Of a stretch of 64,000 nucleotides of DNA, positions 2,695 to 60,620 are shown piece by piece (within the stretch, counting starts at the first letter, position 1; every line of letters starts with the position of its first letter). The stretch is from contig OZ024742.1 of NCBI GenBank assembly GCA_964016885.1, forward strand, positions 66,216,001 through 66,280,000. The letters run 5' to 3'. The notes under the pieces are model-generated. The model was not told the DNA's origin and searched no databases. It was given only the letters and a program-made list of their open reading frames with translations. Origin of the DNA: Eledone cirrhosa. Taxonomy: Eukaryota. Both the position numbers and the translations under genes were made by a program.

Positions 2695-2757
<63 letters not shown>

Positions 2758-2780
2758 AAAGAAACATATCTATCTATCTA
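2695..2780. repeat. (TATC)n tract forming the 5' flank of Tx1 family A
   Basis: Tetranucleotide run interrupted once by ATAAAGAAACA at 2756-2766. Confidence 0.9.
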
Positions 2781-3115
2781 AGTGTTTTATTTGAGACGTG
2801 TGCAAGTTCGTTGGTAAGTTTTTGTTGATTTTCTAAGTAAGAAATCAAAAATTTATTGTTAAATTTATTACTATTTTATCGCTTGACCCCACGTCTGGAC
2901 TTTCAGACGGTGAGTCAAGTCATCTTCACCCCTCCGTGGGTTTGGAAAAAAAATTTCGCCGGTGAAAAAAAAGTGTAAACAAACCTTGCATTCAGTCATG
3001 AACGCTGTGTTCATAACTAGAAGTGGTGGAGAGGCGGTAAGAGTGTTAAGCTCCCAGTCACCCCCTCTCACCACATCATTGAAAGACAATCGAAAATGTC
3101 AGTTTTGAAAATACG

Positions 3116-3199
3116 ATGTCGGACGTTGATTGTAACAACACTAACCCACATACTAATACAGACACCAATAACATGCAAAATATAAACAACACCAACCAG

Positions 3200-3241
<42 letters not shown>

Positions 3242-4903
3242 AATGACAACATGAACAACAACAACAACAATGATAACAACAACACCACCAACAACAGCAA
3301 CAATGATAACAACAACACCACCAACAACAACAGCAACATGAACAACTCCACGAACAAGGAAAATATTTCTTTTGCTCAAACCGTCCAAAAGACGGAACTG
3401 TTCACATACCTTGACATTTCCAATGCTAGGGAAATGTTAAGCGATGCAAAACAATACGTAACTTTTGGTGAGAGTGGTGCTTTTAGCATCACTTCTCCTC
3501 AACAGCTACGCAGAGAAACTGTTCCAAAAACAGTAATTTTTAGGACAGTTTCAAATGCGTCGAAAAAACCAGTTCAATTATCCCAAAACGATATTGAACT
3601 GGTTCTGGAGAATTCCATGAAGGATATTGCCTTCATCCAAAAAGGGTAACTTTTTGGAAACATTTCGGTGTTGTTGAAAGACCAATTGACAGCACAAAAA
3701 TATTCTGTATCGCCGATTGTGTCCCCCCTTTACACCTTTTTCCCCACATATATGGGAAAAAGAACACAAAAAATAAAAATTTCGAACATTGCACCAAATG
3801 TAAACGTCTGGTGGATTCTAACTGGCTTCATCGATTTCGACGAAGACATAATCATTTCGGTGGGAAAGTCCTCCAGAGGCACATTCAATGGTACAAGCAT
3901 TCAATGGTACAAATGAGGCCAGAACGGATAGCTAAAATACCCCAACGTGTGCCTCTGGATGGAATTTCACACATAAACATTTCTGTTGAGGGTAGGCGGC
4001 CTTCATGTTACCACTGTTTAAGCAGTGGTCACCTGAAGGCTTACTGTCCTCAGTTAACTACAAAAAAAGAGGCACTACTGCCAACACCCAAAACAACAAC
4101 ACAACCGCCACCACCACCACCACCACTACTACCACCACAACAACAACAACAAAAACACGCAAACACAACCAAAACAAGAACAACAAACCAACCTGCAAGC
4201 ACAGTCCCACCCAACCCCACTGCAAAAAGACCCACAAACACAACAACTCCCAAAAACATACCCCTTCCAAATAACACAGACACCACAACGGACGAGGCCC
4301 CCACATCATCACCAAGTGACGATGAGGGAGAGCCTCTCCGTTCGAAAAGAAAGAAGAAAAAACAAAACAAGAACAAAAAAAACAACAAACATACAACCAC
4401 CAACACAAACAACGCAAACCTTACAACCCCCCCCCCCGTCCCGAAAACAAAACCACGACATCACTCCAAACACAAACACCTACAACAAACGAAAGCTCCC
4501 ACAAGAACAACAGACAAAAACCACCGCAACACAACAAGAACATTATACATACATAAACAGTAAAAACAAAACTGTAATGGAGGTCATCTCCAACGACCCT
4601 TCGGTGAAAACCGTAGGGAAATATTTTTCGAACTGTGTAGACAAACCTAATTTAAAGATGATTAGGGTCCCTACGGACACCTATAAGTCTTTAAAGGAAA
4701 ACTTTCCTAATGAAGTGGATAATCCTTGTGTTAAACACATTAACCGCGTCCTTTTAAATCGTTTCCCCACCCTCACCCCAGACACCCCTACCCCACCAAA
4801 CATCTCCGTACCCACCCCGCCGGAAACCACCACCCACCCAGACAACCCCTTTAACACCCCCATGGAAACCGTGCGGCCTGATACCAGGGAGACGAAGAGG
4901 TGA
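3116..4903 (+). pseudogene. Tx1-A ORF1 (gag-like nucleic-acid-binding protein), disrupted
   Basis: Poly-Asn N-terminus, CYHCLSSGHLKAYC (CX2CX4HX4C) and a Pro/Thr/Lys-rich tail, split over ORFs 3116, 3668, 3811 and 4316. Confidence 0.8.
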
Positions 4904-4940
4904 GTGTTTTCTTCTCTTCTTTTAACTTTTTAGAACCAAC

Positions 4941-7900
4941 ATGGCCAATATAAGATTTGGATGTGTGAATGTACGCGGCCTGGGGATGCCCTGGAAACAG
5001 GGCAAACTCTTAAACGACCTCAAGTCGCACAGTATGGATGTAGTAGCCATTTATGAGTCCAGGATCCACAGCGAGCGACAGCTGGCCCCCATCTTCGATG
5101 TCTTTGAGATCTTCGCATCTCTCTGTCGGCCGGGGGGTGGGGGCGGGGTTGCTGTTTTGCTGCGGAAACACCTGGGCCTCGTAACACAGACGGTACATCT
5201 GAACCGGGAGGGTCAACTGGTGGTCCTAGACGTTGACGGTAATGAAGGTGGAGGCTTCAGGCTGGTGGCCGCATATACCCCATCCGGGACACCGCGGCCA
5301 GACTTCTTCAACGTCTAGAGACTTTTCTGGGAACGTCCCGCTCCTTTCTTTTAGTGGGGGACTGTAAATGGAATCCTAGATGCACGTTGGGACTATGTGG
5401 GAGCATGTCTCGATAAAGGGGGGTGTACAGCCTCAAACAGTTAATCGGCCGATTTGATCTGGCCGATAGATATCAAATAAATTTTCCGACTGTGCCACTG
5501 TGGATGTGGACTAATCGTAGCGGAACATCTAGATCGTACATAGATAGGGTTCTAGTTAGAAATAAGGATAGGGACATGTTAAGCTGTCCACACATGTTCA
5601 TGGTTGCCTATTCAGATCACAAACTAGTGACCTGCATGGTCAACCTTGATAGAACCCATAGACAAGGACCCGGCTACTGGAAGTTGAACTTGTCGTTACC
5701 GACATGCAAAGCCTACAGTAGACGGATTAGCACTTTAGTTAACCAGCACTTGACAGGGGCCATTGTCAACAACAGATGGTGGTACTCTCTCAAGAGGGCA
5801 GTTAGATTAGGCTCGTTAGTTTTTAGTAAAAGATTAGCCTTAGATAGAAATAGAACCGAGAAGGAACTGGTAGATAAAGTAGAAGATGCAATTAAAAGTG
5901 GCAACGTAGCCAGCGTGCTAGAAACAAGAACGGCCTTGGACCAGTTCTTCGACGCAAATCACGAGGGCTGCATTGTCAGAAGCAAAATACGTGCTCTGGG
6001 AAACGAGGGAGCCAAAGCTGTTAGCTGGGCCTGAGTGTCGGAGGCAAAAAGTGGCAACAAGTCCACGATTCGGTCTTTGAAGGACCAAAACGGACGCGTG
6101 TAACGTGACCCGAAGCAGATGTGTGCGGCCTTTCAGCAACACTTTGCTCAACTGTTCGCGCAGGGCGGCGCGGCGGGAGGGGCTATGGATTTCAGTCGAC
6201 CTACCGCGACTCTCGGACAGCGAGGCAAAGTTCTGCGAAAAGCCGATTTCAGCCACTGAGATAGGGGACGCGCTGAGCCAATTCGGCAAACGCAAATCTC
6301 CAGGTCTCGACGATCTACCCTACGAATTTTACGTAGCAATGCCAGACTTATTCTCCGGTCTCCTGGAAGCGGTCTACTGCAACTGGCAACAGAACGGGAA
6401 AATTCCCAGTTCTGTGACCGGGGGCGTAGTCACACTAGTCAGGAAGGACGAGAATAAGGGGGATGACAGGCATTTTCCGGCCCATAATTCTGCTAAACAC
6501 AGAGTTACAGATTTTGGCCAAGGTGTTGGCAAAGAGGCTGGTGCTTGTCGTCGAGAACCTGGTGGGAGAAGCGCATACACGACAACCTCCACCTCATGCG
6601 ATACATCATAGAGAGTGTGGGGTGTAAATCCGGCATCGGTGGGGCCCTAATCAACTTGGATCAGTCTAAGGCTTTCGATAGGGTTGACCATCGTTACCTG
6701 GATGCGGTGCTCGAGGCGGCAGGCTGCGGACCCGTGTTCAGGGGCTGGATTGCTGCAATGCACAATGGCAACATCTGCTCAAGGGTCAAGGTGAACGGCT
6801 ACCTCTCGGCGCCGTTCCATATCACGCGATGCATTCGACAGGGATTCCCTCTCTCCTCCCTTCTGCACGTACTGCCTCTCGAGCCACTAATGCGGAAGTT
6901 GGAGCTATTGCAGGGCACCCCCCTGGAACCGGGACTTCGGAAAGCGGCGTCGGCCTACGCCGACGACGTGACACTACTGGTGCCCAGCACCTCGCACATC
7001 GGGGAAGTCGCACCTTACTGAAGGAATACGAAAGTTTCACAGGAGCGAAGCTGAACCGGGACAAGTCCATCGGTTTGCAACTCGGATCGTGGAGAGGCAA
7101 ACGGATGCCTTCCGATGGCGTCGTCGGACGCTGGACGGAAGGACCTGTAAAGCTGCTCGGGGTCTGGTTTGGTCCGGACCTCCAGGTGGAGAAGAACTGG
7201 AACGAGGTGACGGCCAACGTATTTGCACTCACCCAGAAACGGGCCGAGTACAAACTATCCTTGAAAGGTCGACCGGAGGTGGCGAATACTTTTATAGCTC
7301 CGCCATGTACTACTGCTTGACCGTCGGGCCTTGTCCAGCCAAAACGCTGACCAAAATGGAGCGCGCGCTCTTCCAATTCCTTTGGAAGAGGCGGGCTCCT
7401 TTGGTGAGAAGATCCATCTGCTGCCAACACCCTTCCAACGGAGGTCTGGGGATGTCATGACTGACGATGCGCAAACACGCGGTCATGCTGCGGCATCTCT
7501 ACGCATTCCTCACCGAACAACCGGTGTGGGCCCCGTTCGTGAGGCGAGCCTTCCCATGACTGGTCTCGCTGACCGAGCTGCAGTCCTGGGTCAAGCAAAA
7601 CCGAGGAAAATGGGCGACTGGCACATCGAATGTGCTCAGGCGCTCACAGCCCTCTGGCAGACGGACCCGGCGATCAGTGGAGACTCCACTTCGTCATTCT
7701 ATAGAGCGTTGAACCGCAGCAAGTGCGACGACGCGCTCGGTGAAACTCTAGGCGTAGAGGAAGACGAACTAGCCAGTCTGTTCGGTAGGACCTTCCGCCC
7801 GGGACCGATGGACAACTTCCAAAAGTCCCTGGCCTGGCAGTGCTACGGAGGAGCTCTACCAGTTCGAAATAAGCTCTACAGACATGGGCGCCCGGGCAGG

Positions 7901-8336
7901 GACCCTGCAAAAAAAAATCGGTCCGATGTGCCTGCGATACGAAGAAATCGTCGCGCACGCATTCATACACTGCCCGGGCGTCACCGACCTGTGGGGCTAT
8001 GTAGAACGACTATTGTCGCGGGTGGGACCAATCCGGTTGACCACCGAGTCCATTCTCATGATCAAACCGCCACCCTCCTTCAAAAACGAAAGAGAGGCGG
8101 TTTTCCTTTGTGTGATAACTATGGCGAAATATGTTGTATGGTGGACAAGGTTGAAAGGGCTGAGGTCAGACACCTTTCTCTCCGGCCAACAACTGATTCT
8201 ATTTTTCAAATACCACTTTGGAAGAAGAATCAGGATGGAGAAAGAGGTGCTGTACCCCAGCAAGTTTTATGAAAGGTGGGTGAAAGTGGCGAGAATGGCC
8301 CGAGTGAATGGGCCTTCTCTCTATATCAGCCTGTAG
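4941..8336 (+). pseudogene. Tx1-A ORF2 (APE endonuclease + reverse transcriptase), multiple frameshifts
   Basis: Motifs NVRGL, SYIDRVL, SDH, GYWKLN, KSPGLD, DQSKAFDRV, RQG.PLS, AYADD and C..HAFIHC. Confidence 0.9.
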
Positions 8337-8568
8337 GTTGAGGAAAAAGGGGAGGAGAGGAAAGGAATACAAACTCTTCGTACTCCTGGAGATGAGGGTT
8401 GCACATTTTTTTTCGTGTTACCCATATGTAATGTCTCCCCCTATTGGGGAATATCGACTAATTTTAAAATTGCATTTGTGTTAATATTTTACACGTTTTT
8501 ATTGTATGTAAACTTCCCCCTTTGTATTTGTCCCCTTCTTTTGTGCCCCTGTGGCTAATAAAGAAACA

Positions 8569-8751
<183 letters not shown>

Positions 8752-12091: not shown

Positions 12092-12171
12092 AGGATATGA
12101 ATGAACAACAGAAGATATGATTGAATTAAGAAAATAATCTTATCCACATACATGATACGAAAGAACCAATA

Positions 12172-12352
12172 ATTGTCTCTACTTTAGGCACAAGGCCAGC
12201 AATTACCCAGTGCATTACTGGTACTTTATTTTATCGACCCCGTAAGGATGAAAGGCAAAGTCAACCTCGGCGGGATTTGAACTCAGATCGTAAAGGGACG
12301 TAACTATGCTGGAAAGCATGGCGTCCGACCCTCTACTGATACTGCCAATCCA
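12172..12352 (-). mobile_element. tRNA-derived SINE (octopus OK-like, Nin/Deu-type core)
   Basis: The reverse complement has the B box GAGTTCAAATCC, the core TTTCATCCTTACGGGGTCGATAAAATAAAGTACCAG and the tail CCTTGTGCCTAAAGTAGAGACAATT. Confidence 0.85.
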
Positions 12353-12644
12353 CAAACAATAATGTTTGTATAAATTGTCCCCTAATGTCACTGTTAACTT
12401 GGAAACCACCTAAATGGTGTCTACGAGCAGCTTTGTTGCCTCGTTGTTTTGGTTTAATTTCTATTGCTTACTAAGCATATATTGTTCTATGATATCTCGT
12501 TTAGATTGATTGATGTTTATTAACTCATTCTCTCTTTCCGTTTCTCCACACACTCATCTCGCTTTTCATAGCAGGTTATTATACATTCACAAACATATCT
12601 ATGTATGTTCTTCTGGTTTAATAATTTCATAAATTATTACCAAT

Positions 12645-15752: not shown

Positions 15753-16318
15753 AGTGGATTGGCAGTATCAGTAGAGGGTCGGACGTCATGCTTTCCAGCA
15801 TAGTTACGTCCCTTTACGATCTGAGTTCAAATCCCACCGTGGTTGACTTTGCCTTTCATCCTTACGGGGTCGATAAAATAAAGTACCAGTAATACACTGG
15901 GATAATTGCTGGCCTTGTGCCTAAAGTAGAAACAATTATGTAGAGAGTCGGACTCCATGCTTTGTAGAATAGAGTTACGCCCCTTTATGATCTGATTTCA
16001 AATCCCGCAGAGGTTTACTTTGCCTTTCATCCTTACGGGGTCGATAAAATAAAGTACCAGTAATGCACTGGGTAATTGCTGGCCTTGTGCAAAAGTAGAT
16101 ACAATTATTTATTTATTTATTTTGGCAGCATCGCTAGAGCATCAAACACCATGCTTTGCAGCATAGAGTTACGGGCCTTTACGTTCTGAGTTCAACGTTA
16201 GCTTTGCTTTTCATCCTTACGCGGTCGATAAAATAAAGTACCAGTAAAGCTCGGAGTCGATTTAATCTTTCAATCCCCTTCAAATTACTGGCCTTGTGCC
16301 TAAAGTAGAAATCATAAT
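15753..16318 (+). mobile_element. Three head-to-tail SINE copies
   Basis: The core GTCGATAAAATAAAGTACCAG recurs at ~15870, ~16040 and ~16224, each followed by a CCTTGTGC..AAAGTAGA tail. Confidence 0.85.
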
Positions 16319-16901
16319 TTCTTTCCTTCTTTCTTTCTTTCTTTCTCTTTCAATCTTCTTTCCTTACTCCTTTGCTTTCTGTCATTCATTTTCCTCTTTC
16401 TTCGTCTCTCTCTTCTTTCATTTATTATTTTTATTTACTCATTTTACTAAACTTTTTGTATTTTTTCTTTCTATCTTTCGTTCTTTCTTTCTCTCTTTCT
16501 TTCTTTCTTTATTTCTTTCTCTCGTTCTTTTCTTTTGTCTTTATGTCTTTTCTACTCTTATTCGGACGGTACAGTTTAATTTCATTTTTCTCTAATTTCT
16601 GTTCCTCATTTTGATTCTATCATTCTACCTTCACTCATTCTTGTTCTTTATTTCACTCTCGATTTCTCGATTACCATTCTTTGTTTGTCACTTTCTATTG
16701 ATATATTTATCTTTCTATTCTTTTTGCCCTGTTGTTCTACATCACTTTCTTTCTCTACTCTGTCTCGTATTTTTTAAATTTTGCTGTCTATATTTCATTT
16801 AACTTTTTTATCCTTTATTTTTGGCTTCAGTTTTCTGCGTTTTTCTTCCCCTTTTCCTGTTTTCCGCTTATCATTTCATCATTTATGTATCAAAATAATA
16901 A

Positions 16902-17290
16902 TTGTTTCTACTTTTGGCTCAATGCCAGCAATTACCCAGTGTATTACTGATACTTTATTTTATCGACCCCGTAAGGATGAAAGGCAAAGTTAACCTCGGC
17001 GGGATTTGAACTCAGAATGGCATGGGCCGTAACTCTATGCGTCAAAGCATGGCGTCCGACCTTCTACCGATACTGCCAATTCACCGCCCTCAAAATAATA
17101 ATGATTTCTGATTTAGTCACAACACCAACAATTTGAGGGAGGGGAAAGTCGATGAAATCAAACCCTGTGCTTTACTAGTGCTCTATGTTATCGACCATGT
17201 AAGGATGAAAGATAAATCTAACCTCGGCGGGATTTGAACACAGAAACCAAAGGGCCGTGACTCGACCCATATTGCCATCCATCGCTCTAA
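16902..17290 (-). mobile_element. Two SINE copies
   Basis: Same core and B box on the minus strand (16902-17090 and 17105-17290). Confidence 0.8.
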
Positions 17291-19441: not shown

Positions 19442-22400
19442 GGGAAGAAGACGCACGAGGTGACGGAGGTCATGAAATCGCTCCCGTAAGTTTTGAATTT
19501 TTAACATATTTAAATCATTTGTGAAATAACAACTCTTAGTACAAATGCTACGTAAAGCACCCGGCTTGAGCCCCAAAAAATTCGGACCCAAAATATATTG
19601 TTATAAGGCTCAAATATTCAAATATTCAACTTTGTACTGTACACTGTATATCCCCCCAAAAAATGGCTATAAATGGAAGAAGAAGACCCCCCCCCCCCCC
19701 TCCTCTCCTCTGGCTACACTATATAGGACAGCTAAACTCACCAACACCAGAAACTAGATACACCACCCACCCCATCATCTGTGTACACTAAACACAACAG
19801 CATTTTCACCTCCACCGCCACCGCTCACTACGGCCATCATTACCACCACTATCCCATCACCGCCGCCACCACCCCTTGACTCCTTCACTGCTGCTGCCAC
19901 CGCTACAGCACCATCACTACAGTAATACGGTCGCATCACCGCCACCACTGCCTCGGTATCGACATCACCACCACCACTGTCTCAGTATCGCCAACGCCGC
20001 CCTCTCCCACTTCTCCCTGCTGGCTGCTACTACTCCCACATTATAGAATCCCTACTACTAACAAAGAGGAAGGCATCAAAATATATAGATAGACTCAAAA
20101 GAAAAAAGAAAAAACAAACAACAAAACCAAAGCAGCACAGCAACAACAGCAAAAAACGAGAAAAACAAACAGAGAAAAACAAAAACAAAAAAAGAAACCC
20201 CCAAAACGTAAAGAAAATAAGAATGAAGAGAGAAGCAGGCGGACGGACAGAGAAGAGGGGGGAAAAAGTAAAACTTAAAAAACAAAAACTAAGTCAGACA
20301 TTCGAATACTACATTACAATGAAACTTATGCTTATTCATTTTTGGGGCCCTTTCTGCCCGTGTGTTTGTTTGTTTATGTGTGTTCGTATACAGCGTCGTG
20401 ATAATGCCACACAAGGGCCAAGTGGGATGGCGGATCCACAGATGGCTATGTAAACATACATTCGCCAATCCTCGATAAGAGTGTTTAAATATCGAACATA
20501 AACAGTTCGAATAACGGTGAAATGGAGACTAGAACGTCATGTGACAGACTCTCACCCAACAGGTGCCCCCTGGCTCAGCAGCAGGAACCTGACTGTCAAC
20601 CAAATACTGCTGATGTTGGAGGAAGAAGAAGAAAGAAAGGGGCCAGAACCAACTGGACGAAAGAATTGAATAGAACTGTTATGCAATGCTACCTGAAAAG
20701 TAACCCCAAGGAGAGGGGCTACAGGAGACGGATGCATAACATCTGGAACGAGATTGGTTTATTTAAATTAGATGAACAAAAATTGGCCGGGCAGGCTCGG
20801 GTAATAAGAACTAATGGGTGGATAAGCGAGCTGGAACTGGAGGAACTGAGCAGAGAGAATGGCTTGGAGATGGCGGGTGTAGTATGCCAGACAAGCGAGC
20901 CGGTGGGAAATGAATGTGAGGAGATCCTGAGAACGGAGGAACCACCCGAAGCAGACAATGATCTGAATACTGAGATAAATAATACCTGGAACAGAGATAC
21001 GGCCACTGAGGAGATGAATGCTGACGGGCTAGGACAAGATTCGGTTGACATCCTAAATCTAGTGGTAGATGAATTGAACAATGATAGTGGGAGACCTATG
21101 AACCTAAGATTTGTAGACAGGAAAAAGTTAAAAGAAACAACAGCTAAGGTAAACAAAGTCATCCCATACCTTGAGGCGAGGAGTCTTCACCAGTGCAACA
21201 ATATCCTCAAAGCAACAGCAAATACGGTGAGGAAACTACTTGGTATAAAAGCGAGAGGAAACAACAGACAAGAAAGAGCAGAGCCGTGGTGGAAGAAGCG
21301 ACTGAGTGGGCAAATCGGGGAAATGAGAAATGACATAGGAAAGCTTGAGTCACTACTGAATGGGACACTAAAAAACATAGGCACTAAACATAGACTGGAA
21401 ATAAAATACAAAACTAGGAGTAAAAAGCTAAATATTATCATAGAGGAATTGAAGCAACGCATTGTAGCAAAGAGTGCCAAAATCAGGCGATACGAGAACA
21501 GAGTCAGTCAGTATAAACAGAACCGCATGTTCGACAACAACCAGAAGATGCTGTTTGGACAGCTTGAGGGGAAAGAAAGAGGCAACGACTTGATCCCTTG
21601 GGCGGAACAAGCTAAAACATTCTGGAGAGGAATATGGGAGCAGGATGTCAGACACAATGCCCAGGCAGGGTGGATTGAGACAGTACAGAGGGAGATCGGT
21701 GAGAAGGCACAACAACAGACTGATTTGAGTGTCACAGTTGAAACTCTTAAGGAGCAAGCCAAAAAACTAACCAACTGGAAATCACCAGGCCCAGATGGTG
21801 TGCAGGGGTATTGGATTAAACATTTAACATCCCTCCACCCGAAGCTGACGGCCATGTTCAATGACTGCTTGGTGTCGGGTGAGGTGCCAGAGTGGTTGAC
21901 AAAAGGTACCACAGTTCTGATAATGAAAGACCGAATCAAGGGTAATGATGTTACCAACTATAGACCTATCACATGTCTGCCCGTAATGTGGAAACTGTTG
22001 ACGAGCATTGTGTCTGAGGAAATCTACCATCACCTCCACACAAACAACTTGTTACCGGACGAACAGAAAGGATGCCGAAAGAAGTCACATGGTACAAAGG
22101 ACCAGTTGCTTATTGATAAGATGGTAATGGGGAATTGCAGGAGGAGACACACTGATCTTGCCATGGGATGGATAGACTACAGAAAGGCATTTGACATGGT
22201 GCCTCATTCCTGGATCACCAAAAGCCTGGAGGTCTTCAGGGTGGCAGATAACATCAGACAGTTGCTGGGCAGGAGTATGGGGTCCTGGGAGACAGAGTTG
22301 ACATCAACTGGAGTATCCTTGGGAAGCGTGAAGATCAAGAGAGGTATCTTCCAGGGAGATAGCCTGTCCCCTCTGTTGTTTGTCCTTGCCCTGATGCCCT

Positions 22401-23990
22401 TGACCATTATGCTGCGAAAAGTGAGAGCAGGATACAAGTTGGGAAGGGGAGAGCTTACCATCAATCACCTCCTCTTCATGGACGATCTTAAGCTCTTCGG
22501 GAAAAGTGAGAAGGAGTTGGATGTGCTTGTTGACACTGTCCGTATTTTCAGCAGTGATATATGTATGCAGTTTGGTATTGGTAAATGTGGAGTCATTGTG
22601 ATGAAGAGGGGTAGGTTGAGCAGAAGTAACGGGATCCAGATACCAACAGGTGAGATGATAAAGGAAATTGACTCTGAGGAAGGATACAAGTATTTGGGCG
22701 TTCTGGAGGCTGATGTCATAAAGAACAAAAAAATGAAGGAATTGTTAAGAACTGAATACATTCGGAGAGTAAGGAGCGTATTGAAGTCACATCTGAACAG
22801 CAGAAATGCCATAAGCGCAGTAAATTCCCGAGCTGTGTCTATTATTAGGTACAGTGCGGGAATTCTGAGATGGAATGTTGCTGAACAAAAAGAAATGGAT
22901 AGGAAGACTAGGAAGCTATTGACTATCTACAACATGTTCCACAAGAGGAGTGATGTCGATAGACTCTACCTAAGGAGATCTGAGGGTGGAAGAGGTCTTA
23001 TCAGCATAGAGGACTGTGTTCAGATGGAGAAAAACAACCTATACAAATACGTGACCTATAGTAAGGAGCCAATGCTCAGAACTGTACTGAAGGAGGGGAC
23101 AGTAGGCCAGGGGATGTCCAAGGAGGAAATAACATCAAGGAGGAAGAGCAGCCTTAAGGGAAAATCCCTTCATAGTACCTTCTTTGAGAAAACTGAACTT
23201 AGAGATCCACAGACATGGAACTGGTTGAGAAGAGGAGACCTCAAAAAGGCTACAGAAGGAATTCTAATGGCTGCGCAGGAGCAGGCCCTCAAAACGAAGT
23301 GGTTGAAGCACCATATCTACAAGGAGGAGGCTAGCCCACTGTGCAGGATCTGTGGAGAGAGAGAGGAGACTGTGGCTCACATTGTGTCCGAGTGTAAACA
23401 CCTAGCCCAGACCCACTATAAGGGCTGGAGACACGATGTGATGGGCAGGGTGATCCACTGGCACCTGTGCAAAGTAAACAATCTACCACATTCTGAGAAA
23501 TGGTATGAGCATAGGCCAGAGGCGGTGATGGAGAACAGTCAGGTGAAGGTGCTGTGGGATTTTAGGATACAGACGGACAAAAAACTGGAACACAATAGAC
23601 CTGACCTGGTGGTTGTGGACAAAGAAAAAAGATCGTGCCTGATTGTGGATGTGGCCTGCCCGTTCGACACGAGAGTGCAAGAGAAGGAGAGGGAGAAACT
23701 TAACCGATACCAGGACCTAAAGTGGGAGGTGAAAAGGATTTGGAACTGCCATGAAGTCAAAGTGATCCCGATTGTCATAGGCGCACTGGGGACTATCTCC
23801 AAAGGTTTCCAGGGATGGTTAAAGAAAATCGGCCCCTTCACGCTTTTTGGAACGCTTCAAAAGGCATGCTTGCTTGGAACAGCAAGAACCCTCCGATACG
23901 TCCTGAATATCTGAGGCTGCAGGTCGTGGCTTGATATTCAATGCAACGGACTTTCCAGTTAACCAACATCAATGACTGAGATTCAAGGAA
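19442..23990 (+). mobile_element. Apparently full-length R4/Dong-clade non-LTR retrotransposon in (TAA)n
   Basis: Single intact RT-RLE ORF and a short 3' UTR followed by TAACAATAAC(AAT)n. The 5' end is inferred from the upstream (TAA)n tract, so the ~1.1 kb leader assignment is less certain. Confidence 0.85.
20522..23914 (+). CDS. R4/Dong-type reverse transcriptase with restriction-like endonuclease, 1130 aa, uninterrupted
   Basis: Motifs KSPGPDG, YRPITCL, DYRKAFD, QGDSLSP, LFMDD, YKYLG, CRICGEREETVAHIVSEC, RHD and RPD..DVACP. Confidence 0.95.
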   Translation: METRTSCDRLSPNRCPLAQQQEPDCQPNTADVGGRRRKKGARTNWTKELNRTVMQCYLKSNPKERGYRRRMHNIWNEIGLFKLDEQKLAGQARVIRTNGWISELELEELSRENGLEMAGVVCQTSEPVGNECEEILRTEEPPEADNDLNTEINNTWNRDTATEEMNADGLGQDSVDILNLVVDELNNDSGRPMNLRFVDRKKLKETTAKVNKVIPYLEARSLHQCNNILKATANTVRKLLGIKARGNNRQERAEPWWKKRLSGQIGEMRNDIGKLESLLNGTLKNIGTKHRLEIKYKTRSKKLNIIIEELKQRIVAKSAKIRRYENRVSQYKQNRMFDNNQKMLFGQLEGKERGNDLIPWAEQAKTFWRGIWEQDVRHNAQAGWIETVQREIGEKAQQQTDLSVTVETLKEQAKKLTNWKSPGPDGVQGYWIKHLTSLHPKLTAMFNDCLVSGEVPEWLTKGTTVLIMKDRIKGNDVTNYRPITCLPVMWKLLTSIVSEEIYHHLHTNNLLPDEQKGCRKKSHGTKDQLLIDKMVMGNCRRRHTDLAMGWIDYRKAFDMVPHSWITKSLEVFRVADNIRQLLGRSMGSWETELTSTGVSLGSVKIKRGIFQGDSLSPLLFVLALMPLTIMLRKVRAGYKLGRGELTINHLLFMDDLKLFGKSEKELDVLVDTVRIFSSDICMQFGIGKCGVIVMKRGRLSRSNGIQIPTGEMIKEIDSEEGYKYLGVLEADVIKNKKMKELLRTEYIRRVRSVLKSHLNSRNAISAVNSRAVSIIRYSAGILRWNVAEQKEMDRKTRKLLTIYNMFHKRSDVDRLYLRRSEGGRGLISIEDCVQMEKNNLYKYVTYSKEPMLRTVLKEGTVGQGMSKEEITSRRKSSLKGKSLHSTFFEKTELRDPQTWNWLRRGDLKKATEGILMAAQEQALKTKWLKHHIYKEEASPLCRICGEREETVAHIVSECKHLAQTHYKGWRHDVMGRVIHWHLCKVNNLPHSEKWYEHRPEAVMENSQVKVLWDFRIQTDKKLEHNRPDLVVVDKEKRSCLIVDVACPFDTRVQEKEREKLNRYQDLKWEVKRIWNCHEVKVIPIVIGALGTISKGFQGWLKKIGPFTLFGTLQKACLLGTARTLRYVLNI

Positions 23991-31853: not shown

Positions 31854-32023
31854 TTATCGGTAGAGGGTGGGACGCCATGCTTTCCAGCATAGGTACGTTC
31901 CTTTACGATCTGAGTTCAAATCCTGTCGAGGTTGACTTTGCCTTTCATCCTTACAGGGTCGATAAAATAAAGCACCAGTAATGCACTGGGTAATTGCTGG
32001 CCTTGTGCCTAAAGTAGAAACAA
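31854..32023 (+). mobile_element. 5'-clipped SINE with (ATT)n tail
   Basis: B box, core and tail CCTTGTGCCTAAAGTAGAAACA(ATT)n. Confidence 0.85.
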
Positions 32024-32322
32024 TTATTATTATTATTATTATTATTGGCGACCTACGTAGTAAATCGTATTTATTATTTTTGCTATATTTTGAGCAATAT
32101 TGATAGCTGTATGTCTTTTGAAAATAGAGTAATATTTATGTGATCTAGGGAAGCATTTATCCAAGGCTTTAAAAAATAAGTGTGCTAAAGGTGTTTTAAT
32201 AGTTAAAGATGCTGGCGGAGCATACCAAATTATAGATCTAGTTCTTATTTTTGTCCGGATTTATTCCTCAAGTTGTTGTTTTTATAGTCAATATTTTTTT
32301 AATTATTATTATTATTATTATT

Positions 32323-35300
32323 GGCGACCTACGTAGTAAATCGTATCATTGTGAGCTCCGCAAAGGTTTCTTATTTTCAGTTGTTTAAAATTGCCATTTT
32401 ATTGTTAACTGTATATAAGTGCACATACATTGATTTCTGAAAAGGTCACTCAAAAATATTGGGGCGTTGAGCCCAAAATTTTAACTTTTTATAATTATCA
32501 AACAAAACTTTTTCTTTGAAAAATCATGGATGACTCAAGGTCACACCTTCCTCACAAACTAAGACCTCACACCGACACCACCATTGTAAATATTATTACG
32601 TTTGCCAACACTAAAAATATAAGCAGTAGCAATATTTTAAATTTGTCTCAGGCAGACATTCATTTCCCGCCATTACCAATGACTGCAGGTGTTACAGCCG
32701 CCCCCCTCCCCCCCCACACACAACCACAATACCGACAACAGAAACAAAAGAAAAAAATAAATTAACTCGTGATATCGAAATGAATTCAACCAAAATGAAC
32801 TCTTCCACAGCGAACACCACTGACGCCACCACCATCACAACTGAAACTAAAATTAACAATAACAAAAATAACAATAACAACAACAGCAACAATGAAATTA
32901 AGAAAACTATCCTGACTTTTGCGAGAGTAGCAAAACAGTGCGAAGCATTCCAGGTAACTCAAGAGGAATTAGAAGAAGCCAAAAAAATGGTAAAGAAAGA
33001 TGCGTACAGGGTCAGCCTCACGCCACCCCTCCCGCACGTAATAAAATGGAGCATCGGCGCCTATACAACGTGTCTTACCGGACGATTAACATAAAATCGC
33101 GCCGAGTGAAACGGGCATCCGAGTCCCAAATTCAAAAAGCTTTGGGACATGTCTGGGCAAAAAAACCCACATCAGACGTGGGCAGAAATATGGAACCGTG
33201 GACGTGTTCTTTGAAACACCACAGGCGGCCAGAGAACACTTAATGACCCCATTAAGAAGTGACGACTTCACACACGTCCCAAGCTATTGTGGCCAGAGAC
33301 TCGTGAAGATCAGGGTGACCCACGTTCCACCGGCCATCGAAATTCCCTGGCTAATGGCTGCCGTCCTCGCCGGCATCGAAGTCAACACCAAGATAATCGA
33401 AATAGCGAAAGAAAAGCAGGAGAACTGGTCCGGATCTGGGATGGAGCTCCTGATCCAGCCGACCAAAAAAGCATTGAGGAGATCCCAGAGGTAATAGACC
33501 TCACTGACGGCAGCCACCTCACCGTAATCGTCGAGGGCAGAATGCCTAGGTGTGTCGTTTGTGGTGAAGGAACCCACCTAAGGGCTGTCTGCCCTCAGGC
33601 TAAAAGGTTGAGGCCACCTCTTTTACCGACCCCAGTGACTCAACCATCAACACCAGCAGCAGCAGAAATGGCAGCAACAACTGTAGCAGCAGCAACAGAA
33701 GCAACTGTAACAGCAACAACCCCAGCAACAGTAGCAAAACCAACATCACTACCACCCAACGCGCCAGAACTAGCACCTGCGCCTACACCATCAACCACGC
33801 CACAACCAAAACCAACGCCCGTGGAGGATTTTTCCACTCCCCGACCTATCGCAACTGGAGACAGATTGTGACGACGAGGAGTGGTAAACGGTATAAGAAA
33901 AAAAGAAAAAAAGAAAAAAAGAAAAAAAGAAAAAAAGAAAAAAAGAAAAAGAAACCAAAAAATAAAGAAATTCTCTTACCTCCCCCTCCAAAAACAAAAT
34001 ACAGAGGGAAACAAATAAACTATCAAACAAAAAAGTTAGGACAGCTATGCCACCATCCACACCAGCATCACCAACTCCATCACCACAAACACCAACACCA
34101 TCACCATCATTAAGCGCAACACCACCATCACCAACACAACAAAAGTCACCAAAAAGCGAAACAGAAACAAACCCACAACAAACGCAAACAAAACAAAACA
34201 ACCAAAACGATACACACTACACAGCATTAAATTTGAACAACAACCAATTATTACACTACATCCAACACACCAGCATCACAGAAAAAGACTACACAACCAC
34301 CCAAAAGTTCACACCACCTCCACACATACAAATCACTCGCATCACACAGAAAACGTACACGACACTAAAACAAAAATTCCCCCAAAACATCGGAGTCTTT
34401 CGACAAACACTCTCCAGGAGGATTTATAAGGACATCCTTCCGGAGGAGGCCAGAAGCAGTGAAAAGGATGGAGAAACCATCTTTCCTCTACGAGAAGTAA
34501 GGTAAGTGGTCTTTCCCATCTTTTCCACTCCATTTTAACATGACCTCACTCAGAATAGGCAGCATAAATGCTCGTGGCTTGGGTTCGTCATGGAAGCAGG
34601 GCCACCTGCTCAACGACCTCAGGCGTTTTGAACTGTCTGACAGTTACCGATTGAATTTACCGAATGTTCCAATGTGGACTTGGACAAATCGCATAGGGTC
34701 ATCCAGATCATATCTAGGTAGAGTATTTTGTAGGGAAATAGATAGGTCTAGCATAGGCTGTCCACAATTCAAGATAGTCAGCTACACGGACCACAAATTC
34801 GTGATCTGTGTGCTTGACTTAGATAGGCTTCACAGACGAGGACTCGGCTACTGGAAGCTAAACGCGTCCTTACCAGCGCGCAAGGCCTACAGAGAAACGG
34901 ATTAGCGAACTAGTTAAGCGGGTGTTGACGGGGACCATCATGAACAACAAGTGGTGGTTTGCTCTGAAAAGAGCGATTAGAATAGAGTCTATTAGGTTTA
35001 GTAAGGCTTTAGCAATAGAGAAAAATAGAGCAGAGGGAGAATTAGTTAGAAAATTAGACGAGGCGCTTAGCAAAGGCATCGCGACTGACGTACTTGCGGC
35101 GAAATTGGCCCTTGACAAATTCTTCAATGCAAAGCACGAAGGCTGCGTTGTCAGAGCTAGGGTGCGTGCTCTCAGACACGAGGGGACGAAAGCCGTTCAA
35201 TGGGCCCGAGTGGTGGAGGCGCGTCGTGGGAACAAAGCCACGATCCGGTATTTGGTGGACCACGACGGGCGTATGCTACTCTATCCCGGGCAAATGGATG

Positions 35301-37666: not shown

Positions 37667-37940
37667 GGGCGGTGGATTGGCAGTATTGGGAGAGGGTCGG
37701 ACGCCATGCTTTGACGTATAGAGTTACGGCCCTTGCCATTATTATTATTATTAGGGCGGTGGATTGGCAGTATTGGGAGAGGGTCGGACGCCATGCTTTG
37801 ACGTATAGAGTTACGGCCCTTGCCATTCTGAGTTCAAATACCGCTGAGGTTAACTTTGCCTTTTATCCTTACGGGGTCGATAAAATAAAGTACCAGTAAT
37901 GCACTGGTTAATTGCTGGCCTTGTGCTTAACGAAGAAACA
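37667..37940 (+). mobile_element. SINE with an 87-bp tandem duplication of its head
   Basis: GGGCGGTGGATTGGCAG..GCCATT occurs at 37667 and 37754; the second copy continues into a full SINE. Confidence 0.85.
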
Positions 37941-37976
<36 letters not shown>

Positions 37977-38191: not shown

Positions 38192-40285
38192 ATGGCTACG
38201 AAAAAGAAATTTCATACGTCACTCCCACTCATTCCGTCTTCTTCTTCCTCAATCATCACTACAGCAGAGAGAAGATTGTCTCTCTCCCTCCCTTCTTTAA
38301 ATGTGTCTCTCTCCCTCCCTTCTCTTTCGCAAGTGACGAAAGAAAAGAAAAGTCTCGTGCAAAGCGTGCAAGGTTTCTCCACGACGACGACGACAGCGAC
38401 GAAACAGGTGTGCGGGAAATACGAAAACCCAGTTCATTCGTCTGACGTCAGGAATAATAACAGTAGCAGCCGTAATAACAACAGCAACAGTGACAATGAA
38501 AACAACAGTAGCAGCCGCAACAGCATCACCAGCAGCATAAACAACAACAGCATTAGCAGCAGCAACACCAACAACAACCACAGCAACAGCGGCGGAGGCA
38601 GTAGTCGTAGTACCTGCAGCAACAACAAAAGTACCAGCAGCTCTGACGACAGCAACAGCAGAGAAAAACCAATCTCATTTGCAGGTATTGCGAAAAACTT
38701 GGAAACAATCCTCATAACAAATGAGGAATTAGAGGAAGCGAAGAAGATGGTGACAAAGAACGGACACCGAGCAATCTGCAAGGCAGCGAAAAATTTTTTC
38801 GAAACCCAAGAGCACTGTACGGTCACGTACCGTACAGTAAGTACAAAATCCCGTAGGGTGGAAAGAGCCACAGAGGCCCAAATACAAAAAGCCTTGGGGT
38901 CTGTGTGGCAGCGGAAAACGCACATCACCCGAGGCAAAAAATATGCCACCGTAGACGTACTTTTTGCCACACCCCAGGAGGCAAAGGCCCAATCAGTAGT
39001 GACCCTAAGGAGCGAGGAAATGGTGTTGGTGCCCTCCTACTGTGGGCAAAAAATTGTGAGGGTCAAACTGACCCACGTCCCCCCCGGAATGACCCCTTCT
39101 TGGCTGGCCGCGTCTGTCCTCGTCGGAATCGAGGACAAAACAACTGTACTGCAAGTACAGAAAAAAGTAAGAGAAGATTGGGTCGGCTCCTCCATTGAGA
39201 TGCTAATCCAAACCAACCAGGAGTGCATCGAAGCTATCCCGGATGTGATAGACTTCGATAACGGCACTCAACTGCCCATAAGTGTTGAGGGCAAACGCCC
39301 GAAATGCTTTCGCTGTGGATCGAAGACTCACCTCAGGGCCTTCTGCAACGAGAAGACCCTGAGAAAGGAGAAAACCCCCCTCCTTCCGAATCCGGCTCCA
39401 CGGCTACCAGCAACAGGACAAGCGGCAACCAGGAACGATAGGCCCGTGGCACCCATACCCACTCCACGGAAATCAAAAACAGCAGCAGCAGTGGAAATAC
39501 TAACAACAACAACAGCAATACCAAATGCAGCTGCAACAGAGACTCCAGTGCAAACATCACCAACAACAACAAGTGAAAGAGTGGAGTTGGTACCCCTCCC
39601 CGACCTCACAGAATCAGACATGGAGTGTGAGGTGGGAGAGAGATGGCAAAAGGTCGTAAGAAGGCACAAACGCAGAAGCAGCGCATCGTCGCCTTTGAAA
39701 AGGGAGGAAAGAAATGAGAAAAGGGTAAAGTCTACTGCAAAGAGACCCACAGCAGCAACAACACCAACACCATCACCACCCACACTAGCGCCACCATCAC
39801 CACCGGCGACAACCCCACCGCCAACAACACCTTCAACACCACCACCACAAGCACCAACATCGCAAACACAACAACAAAACACACACACCCAGCAACAACG
39901 ACAAGAAAATAGCAGAACCACACCCCACCCCCAGAAAAACAAATGCACGGCAATAAATACACACAACAAGAAACTAATGACTTACATAATTGAACACACA
40001 GACATTTCACAACAGGACTACATAATACCAGCACCAATCAAAACGCCAACTAACATAAGACTGCTAAAAATAGCACAGAAACAATACACAAATATTAAAA
40101 CGAAATTCCCCAACGCAGTTGGTGATTTCAGGGACCTAGGAGGAACCATCAATCGAAGAGTATACTCAGACATTCTCTTAGAAGAGCCGACGACCAGCCG
40201 AAGGGACGATTCAACGGTCCCTTCACCAGACGATCAAGTGAAAAGGGATGTAAAAACCATCCCTCCTCTACCAAAAGTACGGTAA
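38192..40285 (+). CDS. Tx1 ORF1 protein, 697 aa
   Basis: Ser/Asn low-complexity N-terminus, CFRCGSKTHLRAFC zinc knuckle, basic patch and Pro/Thr-rich region; located directly upstream of ORF2. Confidence 0.88.
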   Translation: MATKKKFHTSLPLIPSSSSSIITTAERRLSLSLPSLNVSLSLPSLSQVTKEKKSLVQSVQGFSTTTTTATKQVCGKYENPVHSSDVRNNNSSSRNNNSNSDNENNSSSRNSITSSINNNSISSSNTNNNHSNSGGGSSRSTCSNNKSTSSSDDSNSREKPISFAGIAKNLETILITNEELEEAKKMVTKNGHRAICKAAKNFFETQEHCTVTYRTVSTKSRRVERATEAQIQKALGSVWQRKTHITRGKKYATVDVLFATPQEAKAQSVVTLRSEEMVLVPSYCGQKIVRVKLTHVPPGMTPSWLAASVLVGIEDKTTVLQVQKKVREDWVGSSIEMLIQTNQECIEAIPDVIDFDNGTQLPISVEGKRPKCFRCGSKTHLRAFCNEKTLRKEKTPLLPNPAPRLPATGQAATRNDRPVAPIPTPRKSKTAAAVEILTTTTAIPNAAATETPVQTSPTTTSERVELVPLPDLTESDMECEVGERWQKVVRRHKRRSSASSPLKREERNEKRVKSTAKRPTAATTPTPSPPTLAPPSPPATTPPPTTPSTPPPQAPTSQTQQQNTHTQQQRQENSRTTPHPQKNKCTAINTHNKKLMTYIIEHTDISQQDYIIPAPIKTPTNIRLLKIAQKQYTNIKTKFPNAVGDFRDLGGTINRRVYSDILLEEPTTSRRDDSTVPSPDDQVKRDVKTIPPLPKVR

Positions 40286-40320
40286 GTGGTCTTTCCCATC
40301 TTTTCCACTCTATTTTAAAC

Positions 40321-43300
40321 ATGACCTCACTCAGAATAGGCAGCATAAATGCGCGTGGCTTGGGGTCGTCATGGAAGCAGGGTCACCTGCTCAACGACCT
40401 CAGGTCACTAAACATAGATGTAGTGGCCATCAGCGAGACCAGAATCTCCGAAGCACGGGCCTTCGCACCGATCTTCGGCGGCTACGATGTGTACGCATCT
40501 CCCAGCCGTCCTGGATCCGGTGGAGGAGTTGCTGTACTTTTTCGGAGAGGTTTGGATCTCGCCATACGGGCCATCTTCCTGGACCCAGAGGGTAAGCTGG
40601 TGGTGCTGGACGTGACCAGCGGAGACGGGCAAGCTTTCAGGCTAGTGGCCGTCTATGCCCCGACAGGAGCAGGGCGGCCTGATTTCTTCCGGCGTCTGGA
40701 GACCTTTCTTGGAACGTCGCGCTCTTTAGTGTTAGTGGGCGACTGGAACGGGATCTTAGATGCACGCTGGGACTGTGTGGGATTAGCGGATAGGGGTGGA
40801 GGGTGCAAGAGCCTCACCAACCTGCTCAGGCGTTTTGAACTGTCTGACAGGTACCGATTGGATTTCCCGAATGTGCCAATGTGGACTTGGACAAACCGCA
40901 TAGGGTCATCCAGATCATATCTAGATAGAGTATTTTTGTAGGGAAATAGATAGGTCTAGCATAGGCTGTCCACAATTCAAGATAGTCAGCTACACGGACC
41001 ACAAATTCGTGATCTGTGTGCTTGACTTAGATAGGCTTCATAGACGAGGACCCGGCTACTGGAATCTAAACGCGTCCTTACCAGCGCGCAAGGCCTACAG
41101 AGACCAGATTAGCGAACTAGTTAAGCGGGCGTTGACGGGGGCCATCGTCAACAACAAGTGGTGGTTTGCTCTGAAAAGAGCGATTAGAATAGAATCGATT
41201 AGGTTTAGTAAGGCTTTAGCAATAGAGAAAAATAGAGCAGAGGGAGAACTAGTTAGAAAATTAGACGAGGCGCTTAGCAAAGGCATTGCGACCGACGTGC
41301 TTGCGGCGAAATTGGCCCTTGACCAATTCTTCAATGCAAAGCACGAAGGCTGCGTTGTCAGAGCTAGGGTGCGTGCTCTCAGAGACGAGGGGACGAAAGC
41401 CGTTCAATGGGCCCGAGTGGCGGAGGCGCGTCGTGGCAACAAAGCCACGATCCGGTCTTTGGTGGACCACGACGGGCGCATGCTACTCGATCCCGGGCAA
41501 ATGTGTGAAGCTTTTCAGCGACACTTCACTCAGCTGTTCGGGGGCAGCGGGGGGCCGGGTAGAGGGATGGACTTTAGTGTCTACCTCGACGGACTGCCGC
41601 GGCTCTCGGCCACTGAGGCGAAGTGTTGCGAAAAGCCGATAACAGCCGCTGAAGTACGGGAGGCAATGACTGGCTGCACAAGGGGTAAATCGCCTGGTTT
41701 GGATGGTCTGCCCTATGAACTTTACGTACAGATGCCAGACTTGTTCGGAGGCCTCTTGGCGGACGTCTACTGCAACTGGCAACAGAACGGGAGAATTCCC
41801 AGTTCTGTGAGCCGAGGAGCGGTGGCACTGCTGAGAAAGGATCCGAACAAGGGGGATAACATAGACAATTTCCGGCCCATAACTCTGCTAAACACAGAGT
41901 TTAAGATTTTGGCCAAGGTGCTAGCAAAGAGGTTGGCGCTTGTCGTTGGTGGTCTGGTGGGAGAGGCGCAGACATGCGCCATTCTCGACAGATCCATCCA
42001 CGACAACCTCCACCTCATGCGATACATCGTAGAGAGGGTAGCTAGGGAACCTGGCACGGGTGGGTCCTTGATCAATTTAGATCAGTCGAAAGCTTTCGAT
42101 AGGGTCAACCATCGTTACCTAGCGGCAGTCCTGAGGGCGGCTGGCTTTGGGCCCGTCTTCAGAGGCTGGATCGCTGCCATGCACAGCGACATCTGCTCTG
42201 TGGTGAGAGTGAACGGTCACCTGTCGGAACCGTTCAACATCATGCGCTCGGTCCGCCAAGGATGTCCCCTCTCGTCCCTCCTGTACGTATTGACTCTCGA
42301 GCCATTACTGCACAAACTGGAGACGTTGAGGGGGGTCCCGCGCGAACTAGGATGCGGAAGATCCGTGTCAGCATATGCGGACGATGTCACCGTAGTGGTG
42401 TCGAACGCCAAACACATCGAGGCGATCGGCACTACACTAAGAGAATACGAAGCGGTGACAGGAGCAATGATCAACCAGGAAAAGTCAGTGGGCCTGCAGC
42501 TCGGCACCTGGAGAGGCAGGTCCATGCCGTCCAACAGCGTCGTCGGGCGCTGGACGGACGGACCGGTTAAATTGCTAGGGGTCTGGTTCGGTCCGGACCT
42601 CCAGACGGACAAAAACTGGGACGAGGTGACGAGCAGGGTGGCTTCTCTCACCCAGAAATGGGCGGAGAGGAAGCTATCCCTGAAAGGTCGAGCGGAGGTG
42701 GCTAACGCGTACATCGCGTCTGTCATCTGCTACCGCCTAACCGTCGTACCTTGTCCTAAGCCTCGCCTGACTGCGCTGGAGCGTTTGCTCTTTCGCTTTT
42801 TGTGGAAGGGACGTGCTCCGATGGTCAGGCGGTCCATCTGTTGTCAACACCCGCTACGTGGAGGGCTGGGCATGCCGTGGCTGATGATGCGCAGGCACGC
42901 GCTCAGGCTACGACATCTCCACCTCTTCCTCGACGGTGATCAGGTGTGGTCGCCGTTTGCTAGACGCGTTTTTCCCCAGCTCGTTTCCTTGACGGAGCTG
43001 CAGTCTTGTGTCAAGCGAAGACCGAGAGGGAGCGCCTGGAGACTGGAATGTCTTCAGGCGCTCACAGCCCTCGACCAATCGGGCAATGTGATCGGTGGAA
43101 ACTCCACCTCGGCGTTCTATAGAGGATTAGTGGAGGGGAAGAGCGACGACGTACTTGGGGAAACTCTAGGCGTCGACGAAAATCAACTAGCCAATCTCTT
43201 CGGAAGAACTTTCGGGCCAGGGCCTATGGACAACTTCCAGAAATCTCTGGCCTGGCAGTGCTACCGAGGAGCCTTGCCAGTTCGGGATAAACTCTACAGG

Positions 43301-46963: not shown

Positions 46964-46965
<2 letters not shown>
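44072..46965 (-). mobile_element. 5'-truncated second copy of the R4/Dong element
   Basis: Nearly identical to 21101-23990. A 4-nt (GA)n expansion at ~44700 splits it into ORFs 44665-46839 and 44148-44714. Confidence 0.95.

Positions 46966-47047
<82 letters not shown>
46966..47047. repeat. (TTA)n tract, right boundary of the cluster; an uninterrupted (TTA)n lies at 47404-47476
   Basis: Directly visible. Confidence 0.9.
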
Positions 47048-58841: not shown

Positions 58842-58856
58842 ATAAATAAAGAAATA

Positions 58857-58903
<47 letters not shown>

Positions 58904-60178: not shown

Positions 60179-60407
60179 TATATATATAACAAAGGAATTG
60201 TGGTAAGGAACCAGATGGACCATAACGCACCAGAGTAATCAATACTTAGGGTAGTAGAGTGGGAAATAGGAAAAAGTATGACCCTGACGGCAGAGCTCAA
60301 GCCGTTTCCTATATCTATATATGTATATATATATATTATTAAGCGTTGGGACCCGATATGTGAGCTCTTTCAACAGCACTAGATATGTATATATAGATAT
60401 ATTCTTT

Positions 60408-60582
60408 GGCACTATCGGCAGAGAGTCGGACGCTATGCTTTGCAGCATAAAGTTACTTCCCTTTTCGGTCTAAGTTCAAATCCCGCCGAGGTTAACTTTG
60501 CCTTTCACACTTACTGGGTCGATAAAATAAAGTGCTTATAATACACTGGGATAATTGGTGGCCTCGTGAAAAAGGTATAAGC

Positions 60583-60588
<6 letters not shown>
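60408..60588 (+). mobile_element. SINE copy
   Basis: B box GTTCAAATCC and core GGGTCGATAAAATAAAGT. Confidence 0.8.

Positions 60589-60620
<32 letters not shown>

Follow-up and report, generated by a model that had tools for sequence, protein, structure and literature searches.

The closest described counterparts of the locus treated here are retroelements in which a splicing signal or a short spacer lies between two open reading frames (ORFs). The locus is the ORF1–ORF2 junction of long interspersed nuclear elements (LINEs) of two families, A and B, in a 64,000-nucleotide stretch of the octopus Eledone cirrhosa (GenBank assembly GCA_964016885.1, contig OZ024742.1, positions 66,216,001 to 66,280,000 of the forward strand). 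This whole stretch is called the window below, and coordinates count from its first letter. A preliminary description of the window had proposed that the stop codon of ORF1 sits inside a splice donor and that a very short intron may fuse ORF1 to ORF2. The ORF1 stop was found to lie in the element's best site for pairing with U1 small nuclear RNA, and we tentatively read this site as a place where U1 lands on the unspliced RNA, with ORF2 reached by reinitiation.

In the Ogre elements of legumes, two ORFs are separated by a spacer that is removed as an intron from a subset of transcripts, and the full polyprotein results (PMC6317226). However, Ogre is a long terminal repeat (LTR) element with a packaged genomic RNA, a spacer of 274 bp on average and splicing that has been shown, whereas families A and B have a spacer of about 40 nt whose splicing is hypothetical, and keep the ATG of ORF2. 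Human L1 is itself a LINE with functional splice sites, and its spliced RNAs can be copied into the genome as spliced integrated retrotransposed elements (SpIREs). Its sites lie in the 5' untranslated region (UTR) and in ORF1, splicing inhibits the element, and the spliced copies are present in DNA (PMC5860796). In families A and B, by contrast, it is at the ORF1 stop that the site has been retained, and the joints listed include no spliced copy.

Two further systems bear on an RNA that stays whole. In foamy virus, the full-length retroelement RNA is guarded against early polyadenylation by U1 on the major splice donor, an effect that is independent of splicing (PMC3694450) and is proposed here as well; the viral donor adjoins a defined LTR poly(A) site, whereas families A and B have no conserved poly(A) signal nearby. 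Termination-reinitiation has been proposed for L1, which in rat and human also has a short spacer (about 60 nt) and a separate ORF2 start (PMC2241872, PMC4859970). The rat L1 spacer is A-rich (PMC2241872), unlike that of families A and B, which is rich in U and C and opens with the donor. No report of a donor over a stop codon in a LINE was found in full text on spliced inter-ORF regions, introns or U1 in LINEs, a scope outside which subscription papers and Repbase lie. The element is of a known kind, and its donor-over-stop junction looks undescribed.

The ORF1 stop and the donor around it

Family A is represented by one copy of a 5.8-kb element (about 2770-8570), flanked by TATC arrays and degenerate, as stops and frameshifts break its frames. 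Its ORF1 (3116..4903, +) is read in three frames, 3116-3649, 3598-4563 with a zinc knuckle and 4058-4903 with the C-terminal domain. The last codons are gag acg aag agg tga, and, as previously described, AG|G TGA GT at 4898-4905 forms a donor with the stop inside it (GT at 4900-4901, GTGAGT at 4900-4905, TGA at 4901..4903 in donor positions +2 to +4). The third frame aligns to the C-terminal domain of the intact 697-aa ORF1 of family B (24% over 94 aa, E 6e-4), and because of this homology the frame that stops at the TGA is taken as the true ORF1 tail; the concern that ORF1 might end in another frame could therefore be set aside. With its flanks, GAG|GTGAGTGT (4897..4907, +), the U1 complement reaches -12.7 kcal/mol, the top of 294 sense GT sites.

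Behind the donor follow, all on the forward strand, a U/C-rich tract (4907..4931) with a branch-like YTNAY motif (A at 4925, 25 nt from the donor), an acceptor-like TAG (4931..4933), 34 nt from the donor, which a crude pyrimidine score places first among the 326 AG sites, and the ORF2 ATG (4941..4943), with A at -3 and G at +4. An AAG at 4952..4954, 55 nt from the donor, enters the AGA of Arg codon 5 (4953-4955) and ranks 268th of the 326. A frame check confirmed that both AGs (4933 and 4954) are in the ORF2 frame with the phase-2 donor. It is also true that phase 2 is kept between the families, but this is automatic, because the stop sits inside G|TRA. In the same way only the acceptor at 4933 is an independent frame match (one in three), since an Arg AGA codon itself yields a phase-2 AG.

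Several family B copies lie in the window and end in ATT arrays. The junction of copy 1 (B1) reads ACG|GTAAGTGG (40279..40334, +), with a TAA stop, a pyrimidine spacer, the ORF2 ATG at 40321 and the first AG at 40334, 53 nt from the donor. In copy 2 (B2) it reads AAG|GTAAGTGG (34499..34553, +), again with TAA, the ATG being at 34540 and the first AG at 34553, 52 nt away. The family B ends are CG|GTAAGTG and AG|GTAAGTG, the first AG sits in ORF2 codon 5, and the pyrimidine tract is present with no AG upstream of the ORF2 ATG. The spacers of A and B had been called otherwise different; they share 21 of 35 aligned columns, which is not above composition (152 of 2,000 shuffles reach the score).

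Other family A copies were seen in contigs from three sequencing runs (X1-X3) of one sample, DNA-like in character, aligned to 4540-5400 at 80% likeness. Summed depth at the junction is about 26,000, against about 10 for single-copy contigs, from which we infer a family of thousands of copies. Position 4931 is C in about 100% of the depth, 4934 is C in 91-94% and 4956 is G in about 100%. Since 4931 and 4934 read C, most copies would have a CAG acceptor and a fused junction S-T-N-M; the R-T-N-M predicted earlier applies to the copy in the window, and the read probes suggested with it would miss most copies. A second family A form ends ORF1 in Arg followed by TAG within AG|GTAGGTGT (GTAGGT), seen at a loose end behind 4880 in two contigs of X1 and partly in X2. 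Depth at 4888-4916 is 3,200-6,400, compared with about 26,000 at 4851 and 4931 (10-25%), and no difference at 4898-4905 appears among the 40 listed of 117 differences, at this reduced depth and with the commonest form not seen. Spacer and ORF2 ATG are intact in the genomic copies.

Donor strength was scored as the duplex energy of pairing to the 5' end of U1. Ranked in this way among sense GT sites, the donor at the ORF1 stop is 1st of 294 in A, 1st of 256 in B2 and 2nd of 316 in B1. Stop triplets inside a donor that strong number 22 of 5,939 across both strands of the window and 1 of 210 in the family A element, a prior of about 0.4% per stop triplet. Three stop codons occur in one G|GT..GTG frame, TGA and TAG in the two family A forms and TAA in family B. 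The change from TAA to TGA within GTRAGT, which had been noted before, is seen between B and A, whereas the second family A form has its TAG in GTAGGT. All these forms retain G-1, G+1, T+2, G+5, T+6 and G+7, of which +5 to +7 are non-coding, and the ORF1 tails just 5' vary in length and sequence. A and B are still 57% identical at fourfold sites (169/294), and their agreement at the donor is for this reason only modest evidence; the junctions of B1 and B2 count once because they are 92% identical.

The same facts could be explained by coincidence and shared descent. A stop followed by G is a good termination context, and in an ancestor such a stop behind an Arg codon would have spelt a donor by chance, with the pyrimidine spacer as an older, translation-related feature of the L1 group. 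A single origin would be enough for this, in line with the fourfold identity and with the dependence of B1 on B2, and the two strands of the window together hold GGTRAGT 15 times. Among these is an AG|GTRAGT, antisense to ORF2 and close to its 3' end, that three family B copies have kept (43582 and 37254, both (-), and 27581 (+)).

Distant relatives speak on both sides of this question. A broad scan of metagenome DNA gave 24 loci at 22-43% identity, of which five were dropped for too little upstream DNA and 19 were kept (including two near-identical pairs). Several have pyrimidine-rich stretches before ORF2, and L002, L005 and L012 have such a stretch without any donor; the tract is thus older and wider than the donor, as a chance origin of the latter would have it. 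A strong donor over the putative ORF1 stop, however, was present in none of the 19 (with the longest upstream ORF as a proxy that is uncertain in several), so that it is not a generic stop context. The arrangement appears so far to be restricted to this lineage. No close relative turned up in metagenome or viral contigs, where 54 and 31 pattern matches, respectively, were obtained and none was confirmed. In two of the distant L1-group loci, L001 (~1425-1470) and L005 (~3925-3990), a pyrimidine tract and an AG two bases before the ORF2 ATG occur with no strong donor.

Coincidence also has to face the low prior per stop triplet, the top rank in two of three elements and a stop core that varied across three codons as its flanks stayed, and we regard it as unlikely. 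The origin of the donor is improbable, its retention only moderately so, and the donor at the ORF1 stop is probably a selected signal. Of the selection on a splice signal that had been suggested, the part concerning a U1-type donor, with its top rank, its three stops and the kept positions +5 to +7, is supported; the part concerning an ORF1–ORF2 fusion by a 34- or 55-nt intron is not.

A possible landing site for U1 on the unspliced RNA

On the reading that we tentatively put forward, U1 small nuclear ribonucleoprotein would bind the donor on the unspliced full-length RNA, and no splicing to neighbouring acceptors would follow. TIA recruits U1 from binding sites 10-28 nt downstream of donors (PMC2964331), and the U-rich tract 8-30 nt behind the donor might aid U1 loading as TIA proteins do in human cells; a family B tract with no AG before the ATG fits such a donor-side element. 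The nearest acceptors, at 34 and 52-55 nt, may be too close for the octopus spliceosome, in which case the RNA would stay whole. Bound U1 could shield the 6-kb intron-less transcript from premature cleavage and polyadenylation, comparable to the foamy virus donor, and translation of ORF2 would begin at its own AUG through termination-reinitiation, the mechanism proposed for L1. The location might be favoured in that the spacer is the sole non-coding stretch in the middle of the element and that the donor consensus spells a stop. L1 proteins work in cis, and a spliced L1 RNA is a dead end (PMC5860796); a retained signal should therefore benefit the RNA carrying it.

Several points weigh against U1 landing as the function of the site. 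U1 binding and its effect on the RNA are predictions from sequence complementarity, and the score is a duplex energy, not the output of a species-trained model. With a neutral identity of 57% between A and B, retention of four bases has a chance of about 0.1. Poly(A) signals near the donor are few and not common to both families: A has AATAAA at 5476, 576 nt downstream, and in B1 the signals ahead of its end (39952, 40094) all lie upstream. The best acceptor-like site of family A, CAG in most copies and in frame 34 nt away, is left unexplained, and cis preference is a property of L1 that is applied to these elements by analogy. In favour of the reading, 14 of 26 close ORF2 homologs have a Met exactly four residues ahead of the codon-5 position, but this count is inflated since gene callers begin proteins at Met. 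The search for intron loss given below is a weak test where the commonest subfamilies are concerned, because their alignment at 4870-4920 is poor, and covers 18 listed of 516 loose ends. RNA folding, examined separately, yielded no feature common to both families, with nothing in A (z -0.39) and a z of -2.4 in B.

Splicing as an alternative

The donor could also be used in an Ogre-like switch. A small share of transcripts would lose a 52-55-nt (or 34-nt) intron holding the ORF1 stop and give an ORF1–ORF2 fusion, and the unspliced RNA would supply ORF1 and the copied template. This would account for a stop within the donor and for GT-AG ends that restore one frame at the nearest downstream AG in A, B1 and B2, although the latter is partly automatic, and the subset splicing of Ogre is a precedent. 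In family A the best donor faces the best acceptor-like site, CAG in most copies, and the CAG of family B ranks 23rd of 441 and 13th of 356. However, the AAG at 4954 ranks low, no AG precedes the ATG in family B, and ORF2 keeps an ATG of its own. The AG in codon 5 may be a by-product of Arg: AGR makes up 52% of the Arg codons in B1 ORF2, and the 26 close ORF2 homologs have Arg at this position in just 13 cases, with Lys in 6 and other residues in 7.

Intron length speaks against the switch as well. In Octopus bimaculoides, 2.3% of the introns belong to the short class, whose mode is 105 nt (PMC6157073, Tables S2 and S3 of the supplement). The fitted short component has 0.4% at 55 nt or less and 8e-6 at 34 nt or less, and the model of all introns gives 0.2-0.3% at this end, where its long component is unreliable. 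By this benchmark, 34-55 nt appears to fall short of the length that the host handles, and the caution already voiced that the 34-nt option may be too short to splice was well placed. The distance from the donor to a branch-like motif is 25 nt in A and 36-47 nt in B, and the spacer of Ogre is far longer. An in-frame CAG 121-124 nt downstream, present in B and most A copies, would give an intron of suitable length, but it lies in conserved Leu-Arg codons and would cost 27 endonuclease residues, and was rejected as a way to a functional ORF2.

Under cis preference the intron would be erased, because the spliced RNA gets copied. A precise GT-AG loss of 34 or 55 nt was found in none of the seven joints listed over 4540-5400, with a sensitivity limited to window-like subfamilies. 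Two of the seven cross the junction and were rejected as splicing: 4880->4935, whose ends are separated by three letters, and 4894->4947, which is flanked by AA at either end. They begin away from the donor, lack GT-AG ends and are each represented by one contig at a depth of about 10. A fused protein was not found either, in searches that are weak negatives: there was none for family B ORF1 against proteins of 1221-3485 aa and none for an ORF1 C-terminal alignment against proteins of 211-2000 aa, and the endonuclease against proteins of 362-2000 aa gave four matches, none fused to ORF1. Equally weak in this respect, 149 listed representatives were examined, of which 66 align over the N-terminus and two extend by more than 40 aa (P0082 and P0095).

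P0082 (Logan, a cluster of three) is a relative in which ORF1-like sequence, a spacer-like stretch and the endonuclease form one reading with no stop. At the level of the protein sequence, its Gly-Glu could code a donor, and an acceptor 34 nt on could be coded by its Thr-Arg-Met. As a spliced fusion it was rejected, since it reads straight through the spacer-like stretch.

An Ogre-like switch is thus doubtful. If true, these would be the first LINEs with an Ogre-type intron switch and without the cis preference of L1, and the intron would be a third to half of the usual shortest octopus class.

A donor joined to an acceptor at the 3' end would remove ORF2 and produce an ORF1-only mRNA with a short new tail, for which the Gag-only RNA of copia is a comparable case. 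The best acceptor-like site of family B lies in the 3' UTR (43919 and 37559, rank 1 in both copies), with AATAAA 74 nt further on, and occurs in 4 of the 5 family B 3' UTRs examined. The second-best such site of family A is formed by the TAG at 8336 that ends ORF2. The resulting intron of 3.4-3.6 kb would be of ordinary octopus length, the long component in O. bimaculoides having a median of 1.8 kb. On the other hand, the sites of A and B are non-homologous in place, A has no AG from 8397 to 8562, and U-rich 3' UTRs score high through composition. A deletion copy running from ORF1 to the 3' UTR does not occur in the window, and ORF1 protein in trans helps L1 little (PMC5860796); we consider such long-range splicing quite improbable.

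The CAG at 4933 of family A might instead serve as acceptor for donors in the 5' UTR and give an ORF2-only mRNA, the donor at the stop being separate or competing. Of the eight best donor-like sites in the element, three (GT at 2814, 2910 and 3037) lie in a 5' UTR stretch (2811..3044, +); for at least three of the top eight to fall among 31 of the 294 GT sites, P = 0.04. The acceptor lies 7 nt upstream of the ATG, a pyrimidine tract and an AG stand in a similar place in the distant loci L001 and L005, and human L1 RNAs spliced in the 5' UTR still yield ORF2p (PMC5860796). Such an acceptor has no counterpart in family B, it leaves the donor at the stop unexplained, and no loose end at 4934 is found among the 18 listed of 516. 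An ORF2-only mRNA is accordingly given very little weight here, and U1 landing on the unspliced RNA is the reading tentatively retained.

Classification, neighbouring elements and significance

By their domains and targeting, the elements fit LINEs of the Tx1 clade within the L1 group. Tx1 is the label of the preliminary description and is kept here as a putative assignment. The ORF2 of family A (4941..8336, +) contains an apurinic-type endonuclease (APE), a reverse transcriptase (RT) and a C-terminal zinc domain, is interrupted by stops and frameshifts, and has 70% DNA identity to that of family B, in which the corresponding domains are PF03372, PF00078 and PF13966. The best PDB matches of the endonuclease are human L1 endonuclease structures. 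For ORF1 there was no Pfam match; its zinc knuckle reads CFRCG..THLRAFC in family B and CYHC...GHLKAYC in family A, and it falls with CCHC and ZCCHC3-type RNA-binding clusters at 0.90-0.93. Among the ORF2 homologs, those with species names belong to Argonauta hians and Octopus sinensis. The groups with target specificity number three, among them Tx1, which carries an APE (PMC4640811). With this clade the elements share APE, RT and C-terminal zinc domain, a CCHC/ZCCHC3-like ORF1 and an association with microsatellites, and differ in the strong donor over the ORF1 stop, of which the 19 distant loci have none.

The window is rich in microsatellites, and the association with them was family-specific in the small sample that this one window provides. 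Family-A-type 3' ends enter (TATC)n at 2756, 8558 and 58845, and family B 3' ends enter (ATT)n at 24039, 27187, 37633 and 43993. On its 5' side, the family A copy is preceded by a (TATC)n array (2695..2757, +), within which a short family-A-type 3' end (ATAAAGAAACA + TATC) starts at 2756 (+); very short 3' ends of this type (AATAAAGAAA-like) lie inside TATC arrays at 2756-2770 and 58845-58860. The 3' UTR of the copy (8337..8570, +) has AATAAA at 8557 and then runs into (TATC)n.

Rearrangements were seen among the family B copies. The 92% identity of B1 and B2 spans the ORF1 tail and spacer (40237-40404 and 34458-34623), the ORF1 proteins are about 30-57% identical by segment, and this suggests an ORF1 swap just 5' of the donor. 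About 420 nt of endonuclease are missing from B2 at 34618-34625, with CTCAGG microhomology at the break; a GT-AG reading is possible with a poor donor. Copy 3 jumps at 29384-29387 (-) from about 20 nt upstream of the ORF1 donor to the middle of ORF2, and its break is not at the donor.

Other repeats share the window. A single-ORF non-LTR element at 20489-23914 (+), presumably R4/Dong-like, is intact, encodes 1141 aa with an RT, a zinc knuckle and a PD..D-type C-terminus, and lies between ATA/AAT arrays; no APE domain was matched in it. A 5'-truncated copy, 97-99% identical, is at 44151-46968 (-), and both copies have their tail opposite a family B tail with an ATT array between. A repeat of about 190 bp, at 80-97% identity, occurs at 12168-12353, 15754-15939, 15940-16109, 16894-17084, 31855-32046, 37759-37946 and 60406-60591; it has a B-box-like motif, often ends at ATT arrays and resembles a short interspersed nuclear element.

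Expression of ORF2 from a bicistronic RNA is known for few LINEs, and splice sites in LINEs usually harm the element. A donor kept through three stop codons would point either to U1 protection of the element's own RNA or to a spliced route to reverse transcriptase. With its thousands of copies, the family also spreads strong donors across the genome.

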